NCBI GenBank assembly: GCA_002773655.1
Contig: PFAR01000024.1
Span: 25,986 to 57,671 of the forward strand
Direction: 5' to 3'
Source: Candidatus Falkowbacteria bacterium CG10_big_fil_rev_8_21_14_0_10_43_10
GTDB lineage: Bacteria; Patescibacteriota; Patescibacteriia; Patescibacteriales; XYC2-FULL-47-12
Length of the DNA stretch: 31,686 nt
The position numbers and the translations under genes are program-made. Below are positions 1,251-30,039 of the stretch, piece by piece. The notes beneath the pieces were generated by a model that saw only the letters and a list, made by a program, of their open reading frames with translations, searched no databases and had not been told where the DNA came from. Each line of letters starts with the position of its first letter. Position 1 is the stretch's first letter.

Positions 1251-1313
1251 TGTCATTTCTACTATTTGTGTCATTCCCGCGCCAGCGGGAATGACAGTAT
1301 TACGGGAATGACA
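1251..1313. repeat. GTCAT-type REP-like palindrome, partly duplicated
   Basis: Perfect 12-bp stem TGTCATTCCCGC-GCCA-GCGGGAATGACA at 1269-1296; extra right arm CGGGAATGACA at 1303-1313; degenerate left arm TGTCATT at 1251. Confidence 0.8.
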
Positions 1314-3341: not shown

Positions 3342-3349
3342 AAATCTGA

Positions 3350-3458
3350 AATTTTCAATGATCAATTTTCATTTAATTTACAATTTTCAATTTCCAAAAT
3401 GTTTGGACATTGAAAATTAAAATATTGAAAATTGATTGAAAATTGGAAATTGAAAATT
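3350..3458. repeat. Empty inverted heptamer-array element (TTTTCAA arms / TTGAAAA arms)
   Basis: Perfect 16-bp IR AATTTTCAATTTCCAA (3382-97) / TTGGAAATTGAAAATT (3443-58) and 11-bp IR at 3350-60 / 3408-18. Confidence 0.8.
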
Positions 3459-3914
3459 ATGAGAACAATTATCCAGCGAGTTAAAAAGGCATCTGTAAAA
3501 GTGGAGGGTGAAATAATAGGTGAAATAAGGCAGGGATTGTTAGTTTTATTGGCGGTGCATGAAGATGACACGGAAAAAGATATAGAGTGGATGGCAGGCA
3601 AGGTCATGAATTTGCGCATCTTTGGAGATGACCAGCAAAAGATAAATAAATCTGTGCAAGATGTAGGCGGTGAAATTCTCGTAGTTTCGCAGTTTACGCT
3701 GTACGGGGACTGTAAAAAAGGGAATCGCCCGTCTTTTATTAAGAGCGCCCGGCCGGAAAAAGCGAAAGAGTGTTATGAAAAATTTGTGGCAAAAATAAAA
3801 GAGACAGGGGTAAAGACTGAGACTGGAAAATTTCAAGAGCATATGGAGGTGGAATTAGTTAACGACGGGCCGACAACGATTATTATTGAAAGTCAGAAAG
3901 TTGAAAGTTTATAA
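3459..3914 (+). CDS. dtd: D-aminoacyl-tRNA deacylase
   Basis: MRTIIQRVKKASVKV, LRIF, VSQFTLYGD, KGNRPSF, NDGP motifs; start set at ATG 3459 after the repeat. Confidence 0.95.
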   Translation: MRTIIQRVKKASVKVEGEIIGEIRQGLLVLLAVHEDDTEKDIEWMAGKVMNLRIFGDDQQKINKSVQDVGGEILVVSQFTLYGDCKKGNRPSFIKSARPEKAKECYEKFVAKIKETGVKTETGKFQEHMEVELVNDGPTTIIIESQKVESL

Positions 3915-21403: not shown

Positions 21404-21450
21404 AAATAAAATATAGGGGCAGCGCAATGCGCTGCCCCTATATTTTATTT
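21404..21450. terminator. Bidirectional terminator, 22-bp perfect stem, GTAG-REP-like core
   Basis: AAATAAAATATAGGGGCAGCGC-AAT-GCGCTGCCCCTATATTTTATTT between convergent genes. Confidence 0.85.
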
Positions 21451-23706: not shown

Positions 23707-23864
23707 GGGGATAGGTTATATTTGCGCTAAACTATATAAATATATTATAATATAAAAGCAGTGGTTAGTACAATCAGTTCTGTGTTGATATGTGGCTGAT
23801 AAGGAGAGTGGAACTGTTGATTCCATAGTTTATATTACAATATTACGATAAATAAATATAAAAT

Positions 23865-24446
23865 ATGCTGACAAAACTTTTTTCATCTCAAGTGAGGGTT
23901 AAAATATTAAAATTTTTAATAATGCACAGCGAACAGAGCTTTAGCGCCGGAGAAATTGCCGGCGGAACCGGCTCCGCTATCCGCAGCGTAAATAAGGAAA
24001 TCGACAAGCTCCTAGAGGCGGGAGCGGTGATTGAAGAGCTGCAGACCATCCAAGTCAATAAAAAAGCCGTCAAGGTAAAACATTACCGCGTCAATAATAA
24101 CTTTGTAATTTTTGACGAAGTAAAAAATCTTTTCATTAAAATGCAGACGCTGGATTCAGAAGATTTCCGCGAAAAGATGAAAAAGAGCGGCAAGATTAAT
24201 TATGTTGTTTTAACGGGCAACTTCGTCGGCAGCAAGGAATCCGCGATAGACTTGCTTATTGTCGGCGGCATCAGCCATAAAAATTGTGAAGGAATAGTCA
24301 AGAGTTTTGAAAAAAAGATCGGCTGGGAAATAAACTGGACGCTGATGGACCTGCCGGAATACGACTACCGGCAAAAGATTGGCGACATGTTTCTCTATGA
24401 ATTAATGAAAAGCCGGAAGATAGAGTTAATCAGTAAATTCGTTTGA
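23865..24446 (+). CDS. Winged-HTH regulator fused to a degenerate nucleotidyltransferase-like domain
   Basis: LFSSQVRVKIL..F, EIA...G..IRSVNKEIDKL (wHTH); VVLTGNF...SAIDLLIVG (MNT-like). Confidence 0.78.
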   Translation: MLTKLFSSQVRVKILKFLIMHSEQSFSAGEIAGGTGSAIRSVNKEIDKLLEAGAVIEELQTIQVNKKAVKVKHYRVNNNFVIFDEVKNLFIKMQTLDSEDFREKMKKSGKINYVVLTGNFVGSKESAIDLLIVGGISHKNCEGIVKSFEKKIGWEINWTLMDLPEYDYRQKIGDMFLYELMKSRKIELISKFV

Positions 24447-24448
24447 TT

Positions 24449-24940
24449 ACTACAAATTACAAATTAAGTACAAATATACAAATAATTTTTTATGTTGCTT
24501 TATCAAAAGGAGGGTGTTGAGGTTATTTACCCAAGACTAAGCTATAAAATTGTTGGAATATTATTTGATGTATTTAATGAGTTGGGCTACGGTTATCAGG
24601 AAAAATTTTATGAGCGGGCGACAGAAAAATATTTAATAAAAAGAAATATAAATTATCAAAAACAAAAGGGGCATAAAGTTTATATAAATAGGGAATTTAT
24701 CGGTATATATTATTTAGACTTTTTGATAGATGATAAGATTATTTTAGAGCTGAAGAAAGGCAATTATTTTCCTAAGCAAAATATAGATCAAGTTAATGCT
24801 TATTTGCATGCCACCGGTTTAAAATTAGGGATACTGGCAAATTTTACCTCTACCGGAGTTAAATATAAACGTTTATTAAATATTAAATAGATTATAAAAT
24901 TGCAGATTTGTATATTTGTATACAATTTGTAATTTGTAGT
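24449..24940 (+). mobile_element. Putative mobile element: GxxExxY gene bounded by 35-bp inverted TACAAAT-array repeats
   Basis: Left arm 24449-83 and right arm 24906-40 are reverse complements at 32 of 35 positions. Confidence 0.7.
24492..24890 (+). CDS. GxxExxY protein (PD-(D/E)XK nuclease superfamily, PDDEXK_3-like)
   Basis: LSYKIVG, ELGYGYQEKFY (GxxExxY), LDFLIDDKIILELK (D...ExK), QVNAYL, GILANF. Confidence 0.92.
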   Translation: MLLYQKEGVEVIYPRLSYKIVGILFDVFNELGYGYQEKFYERATEKYLIKRNINYQKQKGHKVYINREFIGIYYLDFLIDDKIILELKKGNYFPKQNIDQVNAYLHATGLKLGILANFTSTGVKYKRLLNIK

Positions 24941-24949
24941 GATAATTAT

Positions 24950-25279
24950 ATGAAAAATCAACAAGAAGTTATCCAGCAAATCGCCGATCAAATAATCGCC
25001 GCCGCGGGAGCCGATAAGATGCCGGAGGGGGCGAAAGCGGCTTTCCGGGAAAATCTGGAGGCGCAGATTATGCGGCGACTGGGCTTGATTATTATCAAAA
25101 ATTTAGACGAGGAAGGCTTAAAAGCTTATGAAAAACTAACTGAAGCCGCTCCGGTTCCCTCCGTCGGCGAGATGCAGAGCTTTCTTGAGCAGTATCTTCC
25201 GGATTATGAGGAAAAAGTAAAAGCGGGTATGGATGAATTTATGGCGGAAATCGCCGGGCATCTTAATAAAAAGAGTTAA
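24950..25279 (+). CDS. Small acidic helical protein, DUF5663-like (start MKNQQ at 24950)
   Basis: G.DKMP..AK..F.E.LE.QI..RL..II..NL.EE...AYEKL...FLEQYLPDYEE pattern recalled for CPR DUF5663 proteins. Confidence 0.7.
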   Translation: MKNQQEVIQQIADQIIAAAGADKMPEGAKAAFRENLEAQIMRRLGLIIIKNLDEEGLKAYEKLTEAAPVPSVGEMQSFLEQYLPDYEEKVKAGMDEFMAEIAGHLNKKS

Positions 25280-25287
25280 GTTATTTT

Positions 25288-28200
25288 ATGTTAGAGCCAA
25301 AAATGCCACAATCACCTAGCCATGACGACGATGAAGGCAAACAGAAAGAAATAAAAGAGGCTGAAGAAGCTTTGGATCAAAATGAAATAGACCAAATTTT
25401 AAACCAGCAGCCTTTTGTGGAGCAAGACCAATGGCGGCCGTCGGCGGGAGATGTAAAAGATGCCGCTGCTGGCAATGAATCCAGCGAAAATTCGGTAGAG
25501 GGCGAGGAAGTCCCTGCTCCGGAAGATAAAGACGCTCCAGAGGAAGAAAAAAATGGAGGAAGCGAGACGGAATTTTCAAGGGAAGAAGATGAAGAAGCTA
25601 AGCAAATATTAAATAAAATAGCCTTGGAAGCGGGGATTTTTTATGTTAATAAAACCCCTATTACGCAAAAATGGATAGATGAAAAAATAGAAGAATTAGC
25701 AGAGTTGCCGGTTGATATAGATTTTTTTATAGAAGATTTAATAAATAATGAAATGAGCATTAATTATGATAAATATATTATAAAAGAAGGAGCGAAAGAA
25801 ACAGTTGATGAACACGCAGACGCTAAAAATTTAGAAGAAAAAATTTCCAGCGGAGAAACAGATGAAGAAACAGCGAAGGAAACCCCAACTGATGACGAAA
25901 ATAAAGATGAAGAGGAGACAGAGGAAAATAGAGAGAATGAAGATAAGGGAAAGGGAAAGAAAATGCGGCAAGACATTAACGACCTGCGCGCTATTTTAAA
26001 TACTGCGATTCTTGAGAGTAATAAAGACAAACTGGCGGAAAGTATTAAAGAAAGGACGGGAGAGATTGCTAAATTAGTGGAAGCGGAGAATATTGAAAAT
26101 AACGGAGAGTTAAAAAATTTGATTGAGGAATTATTAAAAGTTTTATCGGGAGAAGACGAAAAAAAGACAGATAATATAAATAAGAAAATTTCAGAGATAA
26201 CCGGATTATCGGCAGATGAGATTACGGAAATTTACCAAATTCAGGAAGAGGTAATCGCGAGAGAAGCGGAGGGCAAAGTAAATAAAGGGAAATTTTGGAA
26301 AGGGCTGGCGAGCACCGCCGGCTATATTGGCGCGGCCGGTTTAATCGGGTTTGCCAGCGGAGGCATGGGATTAATCGCGGCCGGAACGGCGAAAATAGGC
26401 TTTGCCGGCTTAGCCGGATTTAGGATTGCCGAGCGTTCATACCGGGGAAAAAAGCACGCCCAGAAGGTAGAGCAGGAGATTAATAATATAAAAAAATCAA
26501 TTCAAGAAAATGAAGCAAGAAAAAAAAGCCTGTTGGCGAATTTTTCCGGAGAAATGGCTACGAGAATCCAGGGAATGATAAATAAATTAGGCGAGAAAGA
26601 GGCGCCGGATGATACTGGTGATGAAAAAGAAACAAATGGCGCAAGATTTACCAGCGCTTACGAATATATTAATAGCAACTCAAACTTTGAGAAGTATAAC
26701 GAAGAAGAAAAAACATCTTTGTTGAGGGCGATAGACGCGTTAATTGCGGTTGATTATAGCAATAACAAAGTAGAAAAGGAAGTAGTGGAGAAAAATTCAA
26801 GCTGGTTTGGCCGGGCGCTGAAAAAGGTTGACGATTTTCTTACTAGCGACAAGACGTTCTTCAATCGGATGTTAAAGGGCGGAAATACCGCCGGGCAGGA
26901 GTTTAAAACCGCCTCTATTTTCGCGGCCGCTGGCATCGCGGCCCGGGAAGTCCCGGTAATCGGCGAGATTCTGCGCGGTTATGGCGGAATGAAGCTGGGC
27001 GAGATGGGAGCTTCTTTTTATAGCCGGAGAAAGGATGAAATTGTATCTGCCGAAGATATAAAAAAAATGCGGGAAGATCTTGCGGTACCAAAAGAAGAAG
27101 AAGACGACGAATTAACGGAATTAACAAAAGATTTTGACGCGGTAGAGAGCGCGGAACTTAATAGTTTAGTAAATAAAGCCAGGGCGCAGCTGCTTGACGC
27201 TAATTTTAGAAAGAATTTTCCTGATGAATATAATAAATTAAGGGTTGTTATTGATAAAATTGAGCAGGAAAAAATTATAGAGGCAGTTAATGAAACGAAA
27301 GCAAAAGAAGAATTTATAGAAGAGGACTGGACAGAAGAGAGTGAAATTTTTAAAGATATAAACAGTTATTTGCAAGAAAGAGACAGAGATGTACAAGCAG
27401 AGCTGGATAAGCGTTTAAGAAAAGAAAGAAATAAAACAGCCGCCGCGCATTTAGGGCGCGTTGCCGGTATGGCCGCGGGCGTTCTATCAGATGATTTGGT
27501 CCGGGGTTTGGCGGATATGCTGGAACATAAAGAAACAGCTGGCATCGGCGCAGCGGGACATGAATCTGTTTCAAATGGACAAGGATCTAACGCAGGAGAA
27601 CAATCGCTGGACGTTTCGCCTGACACTCCAGAATCGCCGCAGCCACCGGTTGAACCGCCTGCCCCGGATATTTTGCCTGAAAATAAAGGCGGTTTGGAAC
27701 ATCCGGAACACGAAGTCAGTAAAATCCACCGCGCGCTTTGGTATGACAATGATGATCCGAGCAAGCCGGTGGGAAATGAAAAGCGGTTTTTGCCCGGCGG
27801 AGTGCAACGGACTGGTTTTGATAAAGAAGGGGACATTATTTTTGATATAAGTAAAATGACTCCTGACGGTTCGGCGCACGGCGGGAATAATATTAATGTC
27901 CCTTATTTATTAAAACAAGACGGAAACGGGGACAGATTATGCGATAAATTGCGCCTGCTTATTACCGTGGATGGAGACAGGGACAGCGAGGTAATAGAGG
28001 TTCCGGTTGATACTGACGGAAAAATTACTATTCCCGCAGGTAGCGATCTGGCGGAAAAGCTTTTTGCCAAAGGGCCTAACGGGCAGGCGGTTTTTAAGGG
28101 CGCGTTTTTAGAGATTGCGAAAGTAAATGAGGGAAAAGACGGAGCGCGGAATGTTGAAATTATTGCCACGCATGTAGGAAATAAAACCATTAATGAAGAA

Positions 28201-30039
28201 ACTATAAAGAGCTTATTGCAGCCGAAAGTTGAAGAAGAAAGTACGCCCTCCTCCGCTGAAGCTACGGAGGGTGAAAAGTCTGCCCGTCCCGCTTCACAGA
28301 GCGAGGCCGGGGAAGTACGAATTAACGAAGATAGCGGTCAACAGGAGAAGGTTGCAAAGGGAGGCGGCGCGGCAGAAAGCAAGGTTGAAATCAGCGGAAA
28401 AAACGCGAGAGTTAACGGCGTGGAGTTTGAACCTAAAGATTTAGGCTTATTAAGGATTAATGAAAGCGTGCATATCAATAATGTATCCAGCCAGATTGCC
28501 GGCCAGTTTAAAAACGGAGAACAATTATTCCAAGTAGAAAATAACGGGCAGGTCAGCTACGCCCTGGGAACAGTTGATGATGGTGAATTTAAAGTAATTC
28601 AGCCCGATTTTATCGGCACGGGAAATGCGGAAGCTGTGCTGGACGCGGACAACAAAATTAATGTCGAATCGGGAACATGGGGCGCGAAAGTGGAGTCATA
28701 TGAAGCCGAATTGGATCAGATGAAGAGCTATTTGTCTGGCGCGGATGTAAAAGACCCGTTTCAATTTATGAAACAGGCGGGCTTTGATAATTATGATTTT
28801 GGCCGTTTGGAAACATTAATAAGAAACGGGATAACTAACCCGGCAGACGCGCATACTGCCTTGGAAATTGCCCAAAGCAGCGGAGCGAAGTTAAACCAGA
28901 TAGCGGAGCATTATTATATCGCCTCGCCGGTGGCGAAAAAATTGGGCGAAGATAATTCCGGCCTGATAAAAAATTTCATTGATTTTTTGCCCAAAGAAAA
29001 GAAGCATGAGATTGTAATAAATGAATTCTTTGCTAAAAATAATATAGATTACGCGGATAAAGTCGCCTGCAACGCGAGCAGCTCGGGAACAAAAATGGAA
29101 GTAGTTACCTATAATTTTCTGGATGACAGCGGAAAAACAAATGCTTTTGTGCGGATAATGCCGGATAAAATTGAGATATCAGGAGACGGAGACGTGGTGG
29201 ACGGCAATGACCATCCAATTGGTGATTTGGGGAAAATTTTAGCAGATCCGAGAGGATATTTGGAAAAGCATGAGGCTGGAATTTCTTTGGCTGAAAGCGC
29301 GGCGGCTCCGGAAACAAACTCTATCGGATTAAATTCGGGCGATATTTTAAGATACCCCGCCGCCGGGGGCCCGGTCATAAAAATAGGAGAGGCAGGCCCG
29401 GATGGAAAAATAAACTGTGTTTTTCAATTTGGCAGGAAGGAAATAAACACGGAATTAGTCCCCAAGGGAGAAAATATATATGAATATAAAGGCGAGGATG
29501 GCAGTATAGAGGCGTTAAAATTGGAGCCAGGCAAAAAATTCAGTTTTATTAACGATTATAAAGGGGCTGGCGGGCAGACAAACGAGTCTAAACAATTAGT
29601 GGATAATACGATAGCGGATATTAACAGCAATAATTTTAATAACCAGCTTACCGAAGCGCAGAAAAATCAGCTTGCCGCGGAATTGCCGGAAATGGGAAAA
29701 GAGATGTTCGGCGGCGTGATAGATAATAGTAGTTCGCGGCAGTCCGCTTTAATGCGTTTAATGATTAATCCGAATAATACCGACGCGCGCGAGGATTTAT
29801 TATATGAGCAAAGCGGCGATACCGTATTATCCCGCCTAGATGCTGTTAAGGATGTCGCGGTAAATAAAGAAAGCGGTCGGCGTCTGGTTGATATTGTTTA
29901 CCAGTTAAAGGGCGGGAAAGAAGAGCATCTTTATATCGGCGCGGGAAAAATCGGCAACAGCCTTAACAGCTTAGAAAATTACTCTATGGAAAATTTAGAT
30001 AAGTATTTAAAAGACATTCCGGCACGAATTAAACAATAA
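25288..30039 (+). CDS. Giant orphan protein (1583 aa): acidic N-terminus, Gly/Ala-rich hydrophobic hairpins, beta-rich C-terminal domains
   Basis: 4.75-kb uninterrupted ORF; no signal peptide or named domain recognised. Confidence 0.88.
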   Translation: MLEPKMPQSPSHDDDEGKQKEIKEAEEALDQNEIDQILNQQPFVEQDQWRPSAGDVKDAAAGNESSENSVEGEEVPAPEDKDAPEEEKNGGSETEFSREEDEEAKQILNKIALEAGIFYVNKTPITQKWIDEKIEELAELPVDIDFFIEDLINNEMSINYDKYIIKEGAKETVDEHADAKNLEEKISSGETDEETAKETPTDDENKDEEETEENRENEDKGKGKKMRQDINDLRAILNTAILESNKDKLAESIKERTGEIAKLVEAENIENNGELKNLIEELLKVLSGEDEKKTDNINKKISEITGLSADEITEIYQIQEEVIAREAEGKVNKGKFWKGLASTAGYIGAAGLIGFASGGMGLIAAGTAKIGFAGLAGFRIAERSYRGKKHAQKVEQEINNIKKSIQENEARKKSLLANFSGEMATRIQGMINKLGEKEAPDDTGDEKETNGARFTSAYEYINSNSNFEKYNEEEKTSLLRAIDALIAVDYSNNKVEKEVVEKNSSWFGRALKKVDDFLTSDKTFFNRMLKGGNTAGQEFKTASIFAAAGIAAREVPVIGEILRGYGGMKLGEMGASFYSRRKDEIVSAEDIKKMREDLAVPKEEEDDELTELTKDFDAVESAELNSLVNKARAQLLDANFRKNFPDEYNKLRVVIDKIEQEKIIEAVNETKAKEEFIEEDWTEESEIFKDINSYLQERDRDVQAELDKRLRKERNKTAAAHLGRVAGMAAGVLSDDLVRGLADMLEHKETAGIGAAGHESVSNGQGSNAGEQSLDVSPDTPESPQPPVEPPAPDILPENKGGLEHPEHEVSKIHRALWYDNDDPSKPVGNEKRFLPGGVQRTGFDKEGDIIFDISKMTPDGSAHGGNNINVPYLLKQDGNGDRLCDKLRLLITVDGDRDSEVIEVPVDTDGKITIPAGSDLAEKLFAKGPNGQAVFKGAFLEIAKVNEGKDGARNVEIIATHVGNKTINEETIKSLLQPKVEEESTPSSAEATEGEKSARPASQSEAGEVRINEDSGQQEKVAKGGGAAESKVEISGKNARVNGVEFEPKDLGLLRINESVHINNVSSQIAGQFKNGEQLFQVENNGQVSYALGTVDDGEFKVIQPDFIGTGNAEAVLDADNKINVESGTWGAKVESYEAELDQMKSYLSGADVKDPFQFMKQAGFDNYDFGRLETLIRNGITNPADAHTALEIAQSSGAKLNQIAEHYYIASPVAKKLGEDNSGLIKNFIDFLPKEKKHEIVINEFFAKNNIDYADKVACNASSSGTKMEVVTYNFLDDSGKTNAFVRIMPDKIEISGDGDVVDGNDHPIGDLGKILADPRGYLEKHEAGISLAESAAAPETNSIGLNSGDILRYPAAGGPVIKIGEAGPDGKINCVFQFGRKEINTELVPKGENIYEYKGEDGSIEALKLEPGKKFSFINDYKGAGGQTNESKQLVDNTIADINSNNFNNQLTEAQKNQLAAELPEMGKEMFGGVIDNSSSRQSALMRLMINPNNTDAREDLLYEQSGDTVLSRLDAVKDVAVNKESGRRLVDIVYQLKGGKEEHLYIGAGKIGNSLNSLENYSMENLDKYLKDIPARIKQ

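Follow-up and report, generated by a model that had tools for sequence, protein, structure and literature searches.

Inverted heptamer arrays around a GxxExxY nuclease gene in Candidatus Falkowbacteria: a candidate family of small mobile palindromic cassettes

The window considered here, a stretch of 31,686 nucleotides analysed at its full length, comes from the genome of Candidatus Falkowbacteria bacterium CG10_big_fil_rev_8_21_14_0_10_43_10 (contig PFAR01000024.1 of assembly GCA_002773655.1, positions 25,986 to 57,671). At window positions 24446-24943 it holds a gene-bearing copy in a family of small mobile palindromic cassettes, in which a single gene for a GxxExxY protein lies between two inverted arrays of the 7-nucleotide (nt) word TACAAAT. 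The cis-acting module of the family is the pair of inverted arms, each of ~35 nt, and the interior is exchangeable: the cargo is most often a GxxExxY gene, in sister families it is a gene of the PF05635 family, often there is none, and in one relative it is a host open reading frame (ORF). Their insertion sites are the very short spacers between stop and start codons in a compact genome, and close relatives differ from one another by the gain, loss and replacement of cassettes over short evolutionary time.

Three propositions of different strength are involved. That these are mobile palindromic cassettes with exchangeable cargo is, from sequence comparison, highly probable. That the GxxExxY protein is the enzyme acting on the heptamers is a tentative proposal, to which we give somewhat less than even weight. 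The explanation as a whole, a mobile cassette together with nuclease-driven spread, is the best available and, on balance, the one we favour.

The source assembly (G000) amounts to 901 kb in 54 contigs and is 84% complete, with the window at positions 25986-57671 of contig C54. The sequencing runs in which the window is found are groundwater metagenomes. It was compared with relatives of the same order, which are numbered below with G (G002-G030 and so on), with C denoting a contig and L a locus.

The element and its arms

The element and the two host genes that adjoin it on either side are as follows.

23865 to 24446, plus strand: upstream host gene, a helix-turn-helix (HTH) regulator of 193 amino acids (aa); left boundary of the insertion site
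24446 to 24483, plus strand: left arm, with TACAAAT at 24451-57, 24458-64, 24469-75 and 24477-83 and an outer end ACTAC
24492 to 24890, plus strand: GxxExxY / PDDEXK_3 nuclease gene, 132 aa, with Pfam and NCBIfam matches
24906 to 24943, minus strand: right arm, mirror of the left arm with four ATTTGTA units, the 4-nt spacer alone differing
24950 to 25279, plus strand: downstream host gene, DUF5663; right boundary of the insertion site

An earlier note on this DNA, made from the sequence alone, had described the arms as 32/35 reverse complements built from TACAAAT that enclose only the GxxExxY gene, and had placed the unit between the regulator stop at 24446 and the DUF5663-like start at 24950. 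The sequence and the ORF positions agree with this description. The reverse complement of 24906-24940 matches 24449-24483 at 32 of 35 nt, the mismatches being confined to three of the four central spacer bases (TAAG on the left, TGTA on the right), and the single 132-aa ORF is all that lies between. A repeat search widens the pair to 24446-24483 and 24906-24943 (38 nt, 89%), the top-ranked inverted repeat of the window. The first base of the extended left repeat is the final base of the regulator's stop codon, and 6 nt separate the end of the right arm from the start codon of DUF5663. Each arm has the layout unit-unit-N4-unit-N1-unit. The window has 13 TACAAAT matches, of which the two arms account for eight, as four exact units each. 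The regulator that forms the left boundary is kept in 27 of 31 relatives.

Such a structure might be suspected of being a chance product of AT-rich, low-complexity intergenic sequence, since the region has a GC content of 0.33 and short arrays with a 7-nt period are common in the window. Against this, the flank inverted-repeat score of the gene is 56, compared with a mean of 16.1 (standard deviation 2.2) and a maximum of 29 in 2000 shuffles, and among 662 putative genes in this genome just 12 (1.8%) reach a score of at least 35, which serves as the packaging threshold throughout. The source genome contains 105 short-unit arrays as compared with 11 after block shuffling, and 60 of the 105 are intergenic, in a genome of which intergenic sequence makes up 14%. 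A three-unit arm pattern finds between 0 and 66 matches per genome, its reversed control finds approximately none, and identical arms recur at other loci. The inverted-array observation is confirmed, far above chance, and a chance origin, refuted by the shuffle and reversed-pattern controls, retains a vanishingly small probability. An E-value scan of 23800-25400 against Rfam gave zero matches.

The GxxExxY protein

Against PF13366 the 132-aa ORF scores 91.9 bits (cut-off 22), against TIGR04256 92 bits (cut-off 35), and PDDEXK_3 and GxxExxY are its only Pfam and NCBIfam matches. The protein has the motif G34-x-x-E37-x-x-Y40 plus the catalytic residues D76, E86 and K88, and across 29 aligned homologues G32, E37, D76, E86, K88, Q100 and Y104 are invariant. 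An AlphaFold (AF2) model with a predicted local distance difference test score of 90 has a PD-(D/E)XK, restriction-endonuclease-like core, which Foldseek matches to Cas4, lambda exonuclease, Hjc and RecU at a template-modelling score of ~0.5, with no close solved relative. A sequence search of solved structures returned T7 endonuclease I only, at an E value of 0.12 that is too weak for use. Given the intact catalytic triad and the modelled core, the protein is probably an active, minimal, metal-dependent nuclease. The family PF13366 was entered as 'Unknown' in a survey of the superfamily (PMC3424549).

Viral contigs scanned with an alignment of the closer homologues yielded no relatives. At one locus in a relative (L008, G011:C134:8101-8841) the arms enclose a 259-aa ORF with two tandem PDDEXK_3 domains, a fused double GxxExxY.

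Packaging of GxxExxY genes in relatives and across phyla

All three PF13366 genes of the source genome lie between inverted short-unit arrays, and the words of the units differ from gene to gene: TACAAAT in the window, ACGGAT on C34 and ATGCAAAT on C6. Among 30 relatives of the same order PF13366 is found in 18 genomes, at 1-5 copies per genome. The earlier note's expectation that the flanks of these genes would be enriched for inverted arrays was borne out, with 22 of 30 loci in the relatives reaching the threshold, against 12/662 genes of the source genome, and a further four having visible heptamer arms. The layout is constant, with ~4 units per arm divided by a short spacer and lying 0-50 nt from the start and stop codons. 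In a wider public-genome sample of 80 loci, 36 of 74 scorable genes reach the threshold, Bacteroidota accounting for 9 of 11 and DPANN for 1 of 3, and the units are nearly always of the form TAC[G/A/T]AA[T/A]. The packaging is common to bacteria of the candidate phyla radiation (CPR), Bacteroidota and one DPANN archaeon. Several loci (L063, L076, L078, L085, L088 and similar) come from third-party annotation metagenome bins labelled Gammaproteobacteria or Bdellovibrionales that are apparently CPR; the labels seem wrong.

The more alike two of the proteins are, the more alike are their arms (rho 0.46; none of 500 permutations is as high), and gene and arms therefore travel together. From genome to genome, the number of arm-pattern matches follows the copy number of PF13366 (rho 0.68) and that of PF05635 (rho 0.61), in genomes whose kinship leads these values to overstate independence, and the pattern is absent (0 matches) from five genomes, likewise kin, that are without both families.

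Gene-less copies of the arms

The window's exact arm pair recurs three times in the source genome with no gene and only 0-18 nt between the arms.

C42, 19178 to 19243: gene-less cognate doublet
C44, 8304 to 8375: gene-less cognate doublet
C54, 5784 to 5869: gene-less cognate doublet, upstream of the window

Gene-less derivatives had been proposed in the earlier note, and these three copies are cognate examples. The arrays elsewhere in the window, which the note had taken for the derivatives, are built from different units (at 96-173, 3345-3459 and others) and are to be assigned to sister families. Two of them are gene-less palindromic doublets, each of which fills a stop-to-start spacer.

96 to 173, no strand: sister-family doublet with TCCAAAT / CCACAAAT units; a stop codon precedes it, and the next ribosome-binding site and start follow
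3345 to 3459, no strand: doublet of another family (AATTTTC / GAAAATT units) with a ~33-nt loop, ending at the next start codon

In the first of these the right arm is shortened to two units, the inner two being gone, and the units are similar to those in the arms of the source genome's second GxxExxY gene (C6).

None of the eight TACAAAT-family arms in the source genome has a single deviation in its four heptamers. The 4-nt spacer, by contrast, occurs in six different versions and is non-complementary in three of the four copies. Exact words around a free spacer imply that selection or homogenisation acts on the heptamer words, and not simply on stem pairing. A larger set of gene-less copies is found in the same-family relative G006, where the arm of the genome's own GxxExxY gene recurs at at least 18 loci, as 13 doublets and 5 solo arms. 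The G006 doublets (L075-type, L185-L200) have a constant a-type/b-type polarity, one arm having an inner unit of the AATACAAAT type and the other of the ATCACGAAT type, and their loops form two classes, of 3-4 nt or of a conserved ~22 nt. The gene-bearing G006 copy has two identical arms, without the asymmetry of the doublets.

In groundwater metagenomes, the two bins of the sequence that cover the arms reach 10-30x the summed depth of the unique flanks, and on metagenome contigs unrelated sequence starts sharply at 24450/51, 24483/84, 24906 and 24938/39. Arm depth and sharp borders together mark the arm as a discrete module that occurs in many contexts. Some metagenome joints connect 24481-24485 to 24906-24907, as excision of the gene would. 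These joints are gene-less copies at other loci or in other organisms and do not count as evidence of excision at this locus.

Movement and turnover at orthologous sites

Two loci of the same relative (L015 and L029, both in G009) are 85% identical exactly from arm to arm within unrelated flanks, and arms and gene were thus duplicated as one block. A comparison of L015 with L027 gives arms that are 100% identical and genes that are 85% identical. At the L015 site, where flanks are 92-93% identical, G009 carries a 500-nt GxxExxY cassette and its congener G006 carries 288 nt made up of two gene-less palindromes, different and unrelated. A gene-less doublet is likewise present on G009:C46 and absent at the orthologous site on G006:C59.

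The junction of a PilB-like ATPase gene with the next gene, readable in 24 relatives, extends these observations. It is an array-free spacer of 14-25 nt in G016, G017, G020 and G025, is taken up by gene-less doublets from at least five families of units in G006, G010, G014, G019 and G024, and carries GxxExxY cassettes in G000, G004 and G005. The cassette protein of the source genome is 37-38% identical to those of G004 and G005, beside a neighbour gene that is 87-94% identical. A cassette of such low identity next to so well kept a gene implies that this spot was colonised or refilled repeatedly. Because the basal spacers measure only 14-25 nt, any insertion there must abut both codons, and the idea that arms abutting stop and start form a special coupling device was dropped on that account.

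The junction occupied in the window has its own history among the relatives. In four same-family genomes (G010, G003, G008 and G002) the regulator is followed by an ORF of 57-65 aa and then by DUF5663, with no arms and no nuclease gene. The earlier note had looked to empty regulator-DUF5663 junctions, and this idea holds in part: four relatives are without arms there, and a small ORF takes up the place in which a clean empty site was sought, none being found for the window's own junction among the relatives. A tblastn search for the relatives' small ORF in the source assembly did not find it. In G005, whose regulator is the closest, one arm follows the regulator stop directly and the other directly precedes the DUF5663 start, the two junctions being those of the window; here they enclose an (AACACGC)x7 array without imperfections, together with the host's small ORF (L034, ~2083-2560). 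The same arms hold different cargo in the two genomes, which shows that the one can be separated from the other. Read most simply, the arms of the source genome were already in place when a GxxExxY cassette with matching arms took over the stretch between them. A replacement of this sort is the outcome expected from homing or gene conversion. Gene-less cognate doublets also exist in the source genome. Exactly within the 4-nt spacer of the G005 right arm lies a GC-rich hairpin of 36 nt, which suggests that a second small element was inserted there, as a nested insertion.

Taken together, recurrent packaging, homology that ends at the arms and variable orthologous junctions uphold the earlier note's proposal of a selfish mobile unit with gene-less relatives. 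Fixed synteny, uniformly occupied sites and flanks no richer than background, the opposite picture that the note had drawn up, are clearly not what these genomes present. The note's further proposals, of an autonomous element whose nuclease binds the heptamers, are more tentative. In keeping with the note's remark on this site, target-site duplications were found neither here nor at about 15 other copies (4 in the source genome, ~13 in G006).

Proposed mechanism

Under the explanation favoured here, the nuclease, with its D...ExK residues intact, would cut at the heptamer arrays of its family, which it would recognise in duplex, hairpin or cruciform form. The break would then be repaired on the template of a gene-bearing copy, the arms supplying the homology, and the gene would be copied between cognate arms, which amounts to homing or gene conversion. 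The gene-less doublets would spread or persist in the manner of REPINs (repetitive extragenic palindromic (REP) doublets forming hairpins) or miniature inverted-repeat transposable elements (MITEs), and an RNA stem may spare the host operon any harm from the insertion. Folding prediction for single-stranded DNA gives the gene-less copies hairpins of ~-23 kcal/mol (z -8.5 to -9), and a hairpin or cruciform substrate is thus plausible for a nuclease of Hjc-like size.

The same arms could instead serve mainly at the level of RNA or the host, as a stem cut by RNase III or as a transcription terminator, insulator or regulator, with GxxExxY a resident host gene equipped with processing signals. RNA prediction does have the arms close a stem of 36-38 bp (z -3.5); 23S rRNA intervening sequences, which are removed by RNase III, have the same design of an ORF within a stem (PMC4990558); variants are often matched between both arms; and every copy lies within a transcription unit, at a stop-to-start junction. 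A stem, however, requires no internal 7-nt repeats, and, as described above, the words are invariant where spacers fail to pair in three of four copies. Elements that come, go and replace each other quickly at orthologous sites, that number dozens in a genome and that are spread across phyla are also unlike a resident gene, and a stem that serves tolerance of the insertion is already part of the mobile-cassette explanation. A primarily RNA-level or host function is accordingly improbable.

Is the nuclease the agent of movement?

A more serious alternative accepts that the palindromes are mobile or self-propagating and assigns the work to another factor, such as a host enzyme, errors of replication driven by hairpins, or the PF05635 four-helix-bundle protein, leaving GxxExxY as a passenger or a separate invader of palindrome centres that does not act on the heptamers. 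Much of the evidence that bears on this comes from the second cargo family. At C16:29458-29811 of the source genome a 23S_rRNA_IVP four-helix-bundle gene (PF05635) lies between inverted GATTTTA arrays. PF05635 genes are present in 26 of 31 relatives, at up to 15 per ~1-Mb genome, and the words of their arms include TAGCTTG, GTAAGAC, TAAAGTC and others (L155-L184 in relatives).

Several observations weigh against nuclease-driven mobility, and in part against the mobile cassette as we describe it. PF05635 genes have no nuclease domain and are packaged likewise, 16 of 29 sampled scoring at least 35. Two genomes, G024 and G030, have 27 and 24 arm matches and no PF13366 match, and in G030 a PF05635 gene sits between arms that hold TACAAAT and TACGAAT units. 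The packaging of PF05635 and the arm-rich genomes without PF13366 therefore weaken the claim that GxxExxY is the reader of heptamers. Several array families of the source genome are without a cognate gene, in an assembly that is 84% complete. No clean pair of filled and empty sites with identical junctions was found, which leaves the exact ends and the target undefined; the metagenome joints described above, which extend for ~30 nt on each side, are accounted for by gene-less copies elsewhere or in other organisms; and since the relatives compared are kin, the statistics overstate independence. Housekeeping genes (HisRS, DprA and LexA) are also bracketed by arrays of the same family. The bracketed genes of the source genome are listed here.

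C30, 13049 to 14389: HisRS
C30, 7144 to 8256: DprA-like
C49, 7640 to 8218: LexA-like
C34, 10619 to 11173: LemA-like

Housekeeping genes seem to be flanked by one unit family oftener than random placement of ~10 families would give.

The passenger alternative draws on the unrelated PF05635 cargo, including the gene with TACNAAT arms in a PF13366-less genome, and on G024 and G030 as arm-rich genomes; it is also served by the host ORF between the same arms in G005, by the many array families of the source genome without a cognate gene, and by the missing a-type/b-type asymmetry in the gene-bearing G006 copy. Against it stand the co-divergence of arms and protein, the homology between paralogues that covers gene and arms as one block, the arms at 22 of 30 GxxExxY genes, and the absence of the arm pattern from genomes without both small-protein families; nor has any other candidate enzyme been identified. 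On these grounds we consider it unlikely that the nuclease is a mere passenger, with a weight that is nonetheless appreciable, and the mobile cassette spread by its own nuclease remains our preferred explanation.

Other repeats and genes of the window

A separate, REPIN-like family of ~25 copies in the source genome consists of inverted doublets of a 25-nt GC-rich hairpin (starting TGTCATTCCCGCG) with spacers of 11-18 nt; examples lie at C4:4288-4350 and C16:18242-18305, and one diverged half-site lies at window 1271-1292. Window positions 21404-21450 form a terminator-like inverted repeat, perfect over 23 nt, whose loop is a single nucleotide and whose core is GC-rich; it lies just outside the 3' end of a 753-aa minus-strand ORF, which it overlaps by a few bases. 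A 1583-aa ORF with a long, acidic, low-complexity N-terminal part follows DUF5663 directly (25288-30039).

Implications

GxxExxY/PDDEXK_3 and 23S_rRNA_IVP proteins are among the commonest small proteins without an assigned role in CPR, Bacteroidota and others, with up to 5 and 15 copies, respectively, per ~1-Mb genome here, and one DNA package for both families gives them a testable role, that of selfish cassettes. The cassettes would explain a considerable fraction of the repeats between genes in genomes that are commonly regarded as streamlined, and would offer a concrete origin for rRNA intervening sequences and intergenic heptamer arrays. If the nuclease reads 7-nt words in arrays, it would constitute a compact, modular system of sequence recognition, and if nuclease-driven homing into heptamer palindromes is true, the element would be of a new kind. 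On a practical level, the arms break metagenome assemblies, as in contigs ending at 24484, and may be used as markers of horizontal exchange among CPR, DPANN and Bacteroidota.

A wider generalisation would make heptamer palindromes with GxxExxY or PF05635 cargo one new class of mobile element spanning two domains, whose nuclease reads 7-nt words and homes into cognate palindromes, and would derive from it the 23S rRNA intervening sequences and the heptamers of Bacteroidota, possibly also those of Cyanobacteria and Beggiatoaceae. We regard this generalisation as doubtful, if worth stating.

Comparison with known systems

Elements that combine an autonomous form with gene-less inverted-repeat forms are an already known kind; mobile DNA that consists of a gene plus heptamer arms is apparently previously undescribed. 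The full-text literature gave nothing linking GxxExxY or PDDEXK_3 to repeats, nothing with the arm dimer sequences, and no account of MITE or REP elements in CPR.

Like insertion sequences (ISs) with their MITEs, the element has a single gene between terminal inverted repeats and is accompanied by shorter derivatives that lack the gene and share its ends. A conventional IS/MITE pair was rejected, there being no known transposase family and no target-site duplications; moreover, the arms here are made of internal repeats and the cargo is exchangeable. Integron cassettes with attC sites, IS200/IS605 ends and CRISPR were also considered, and none fits four direct heptamers per arm combined with a PD-(D/E)XK gene.

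Homing endonuclease genes include a PD-(D/E)XK enzyme, I-Ssp6803I. The likeness to them lies in a small nuclease gene that apparently replaces the content of a cognate site, in different cassettes at the same junction, and in the lack of a target-site duplication afterwards. The element is not a classical homing endonuclease gene, because it does not lie within an intron or intein, and its putative target is a palindromic array present at many loci, as opposed to one conserved gene sequence.

Among intergenic heptamer arrays are the STRR repeats of cyanobacteria. Both these and the TAACTGA repeats resemble the arms in being 7-nt arrays that are abundant between genes, often end beside start codons and are patchy across phyla; they are mostly perfect direct tandem arrays with no linked gene, whereas the arrays of the element are interrupted, inverted and bracket a nuclease gene. 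The TAACTGA direct repeats have been described from intergenic regions of Beggiatoaceae, Cyanobacteria and Bacteroidetes, with 'no mechanism evident' (PMC4679880). A connection with the cassettes is a lead only.

Two systems come closer. In REPIN/RAYT systems (RAYT, REP-associated tyrosine transposase; PMC3116915, PMC3337134) one small gene has inverted copies of a short repeat on its two sides, and the repeat is also dispersed as gene-less inverted doublets in intergenic spacers, as is seen here in G000 and G006; each gene lineage has its own repeat family, and there is no target-site duplication. The differences concern the enzyme, a PD-(D/E)XK nuclease here and a Y1/HuH (IS200/IS605-like) transposase there; the repeat, an AT-rich array of four heptamers in place of a GC-rich REP hairpin; and the inheritance, since RAYTs are single-copy and vertically inherited, while the genes here are multi-copy, replaced at orthologous sites and found across phyla. 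A second, unrelated cargo family is a further difference.

The 23S rRNA intervening sequences, of which the 428-nt Coxiella sequence with its S23p ORF is an example (PMC4990558), share with the element a size of ~430-500 nt, one small ORF within terminal inverted repeats, a long stem (28 bp there, 36-38 bp predicted here), and a sporadic distribution with suspected transfer, and the S23p/PF05635 family is itself packaged likewise in these CPR genomes. Unlike them, the element lies between protein-coding genes and not in helix 25 or 45 of 23S rRNA, and it has a nuclease (PF13366) ORF, heptamer-array arms and abundant gene-less copies. From these comparisons, the cassettes are nearest to REPIN/RAYT systems in their logic and nearest to the 23S rRNA intervening sequences in their anatomy.

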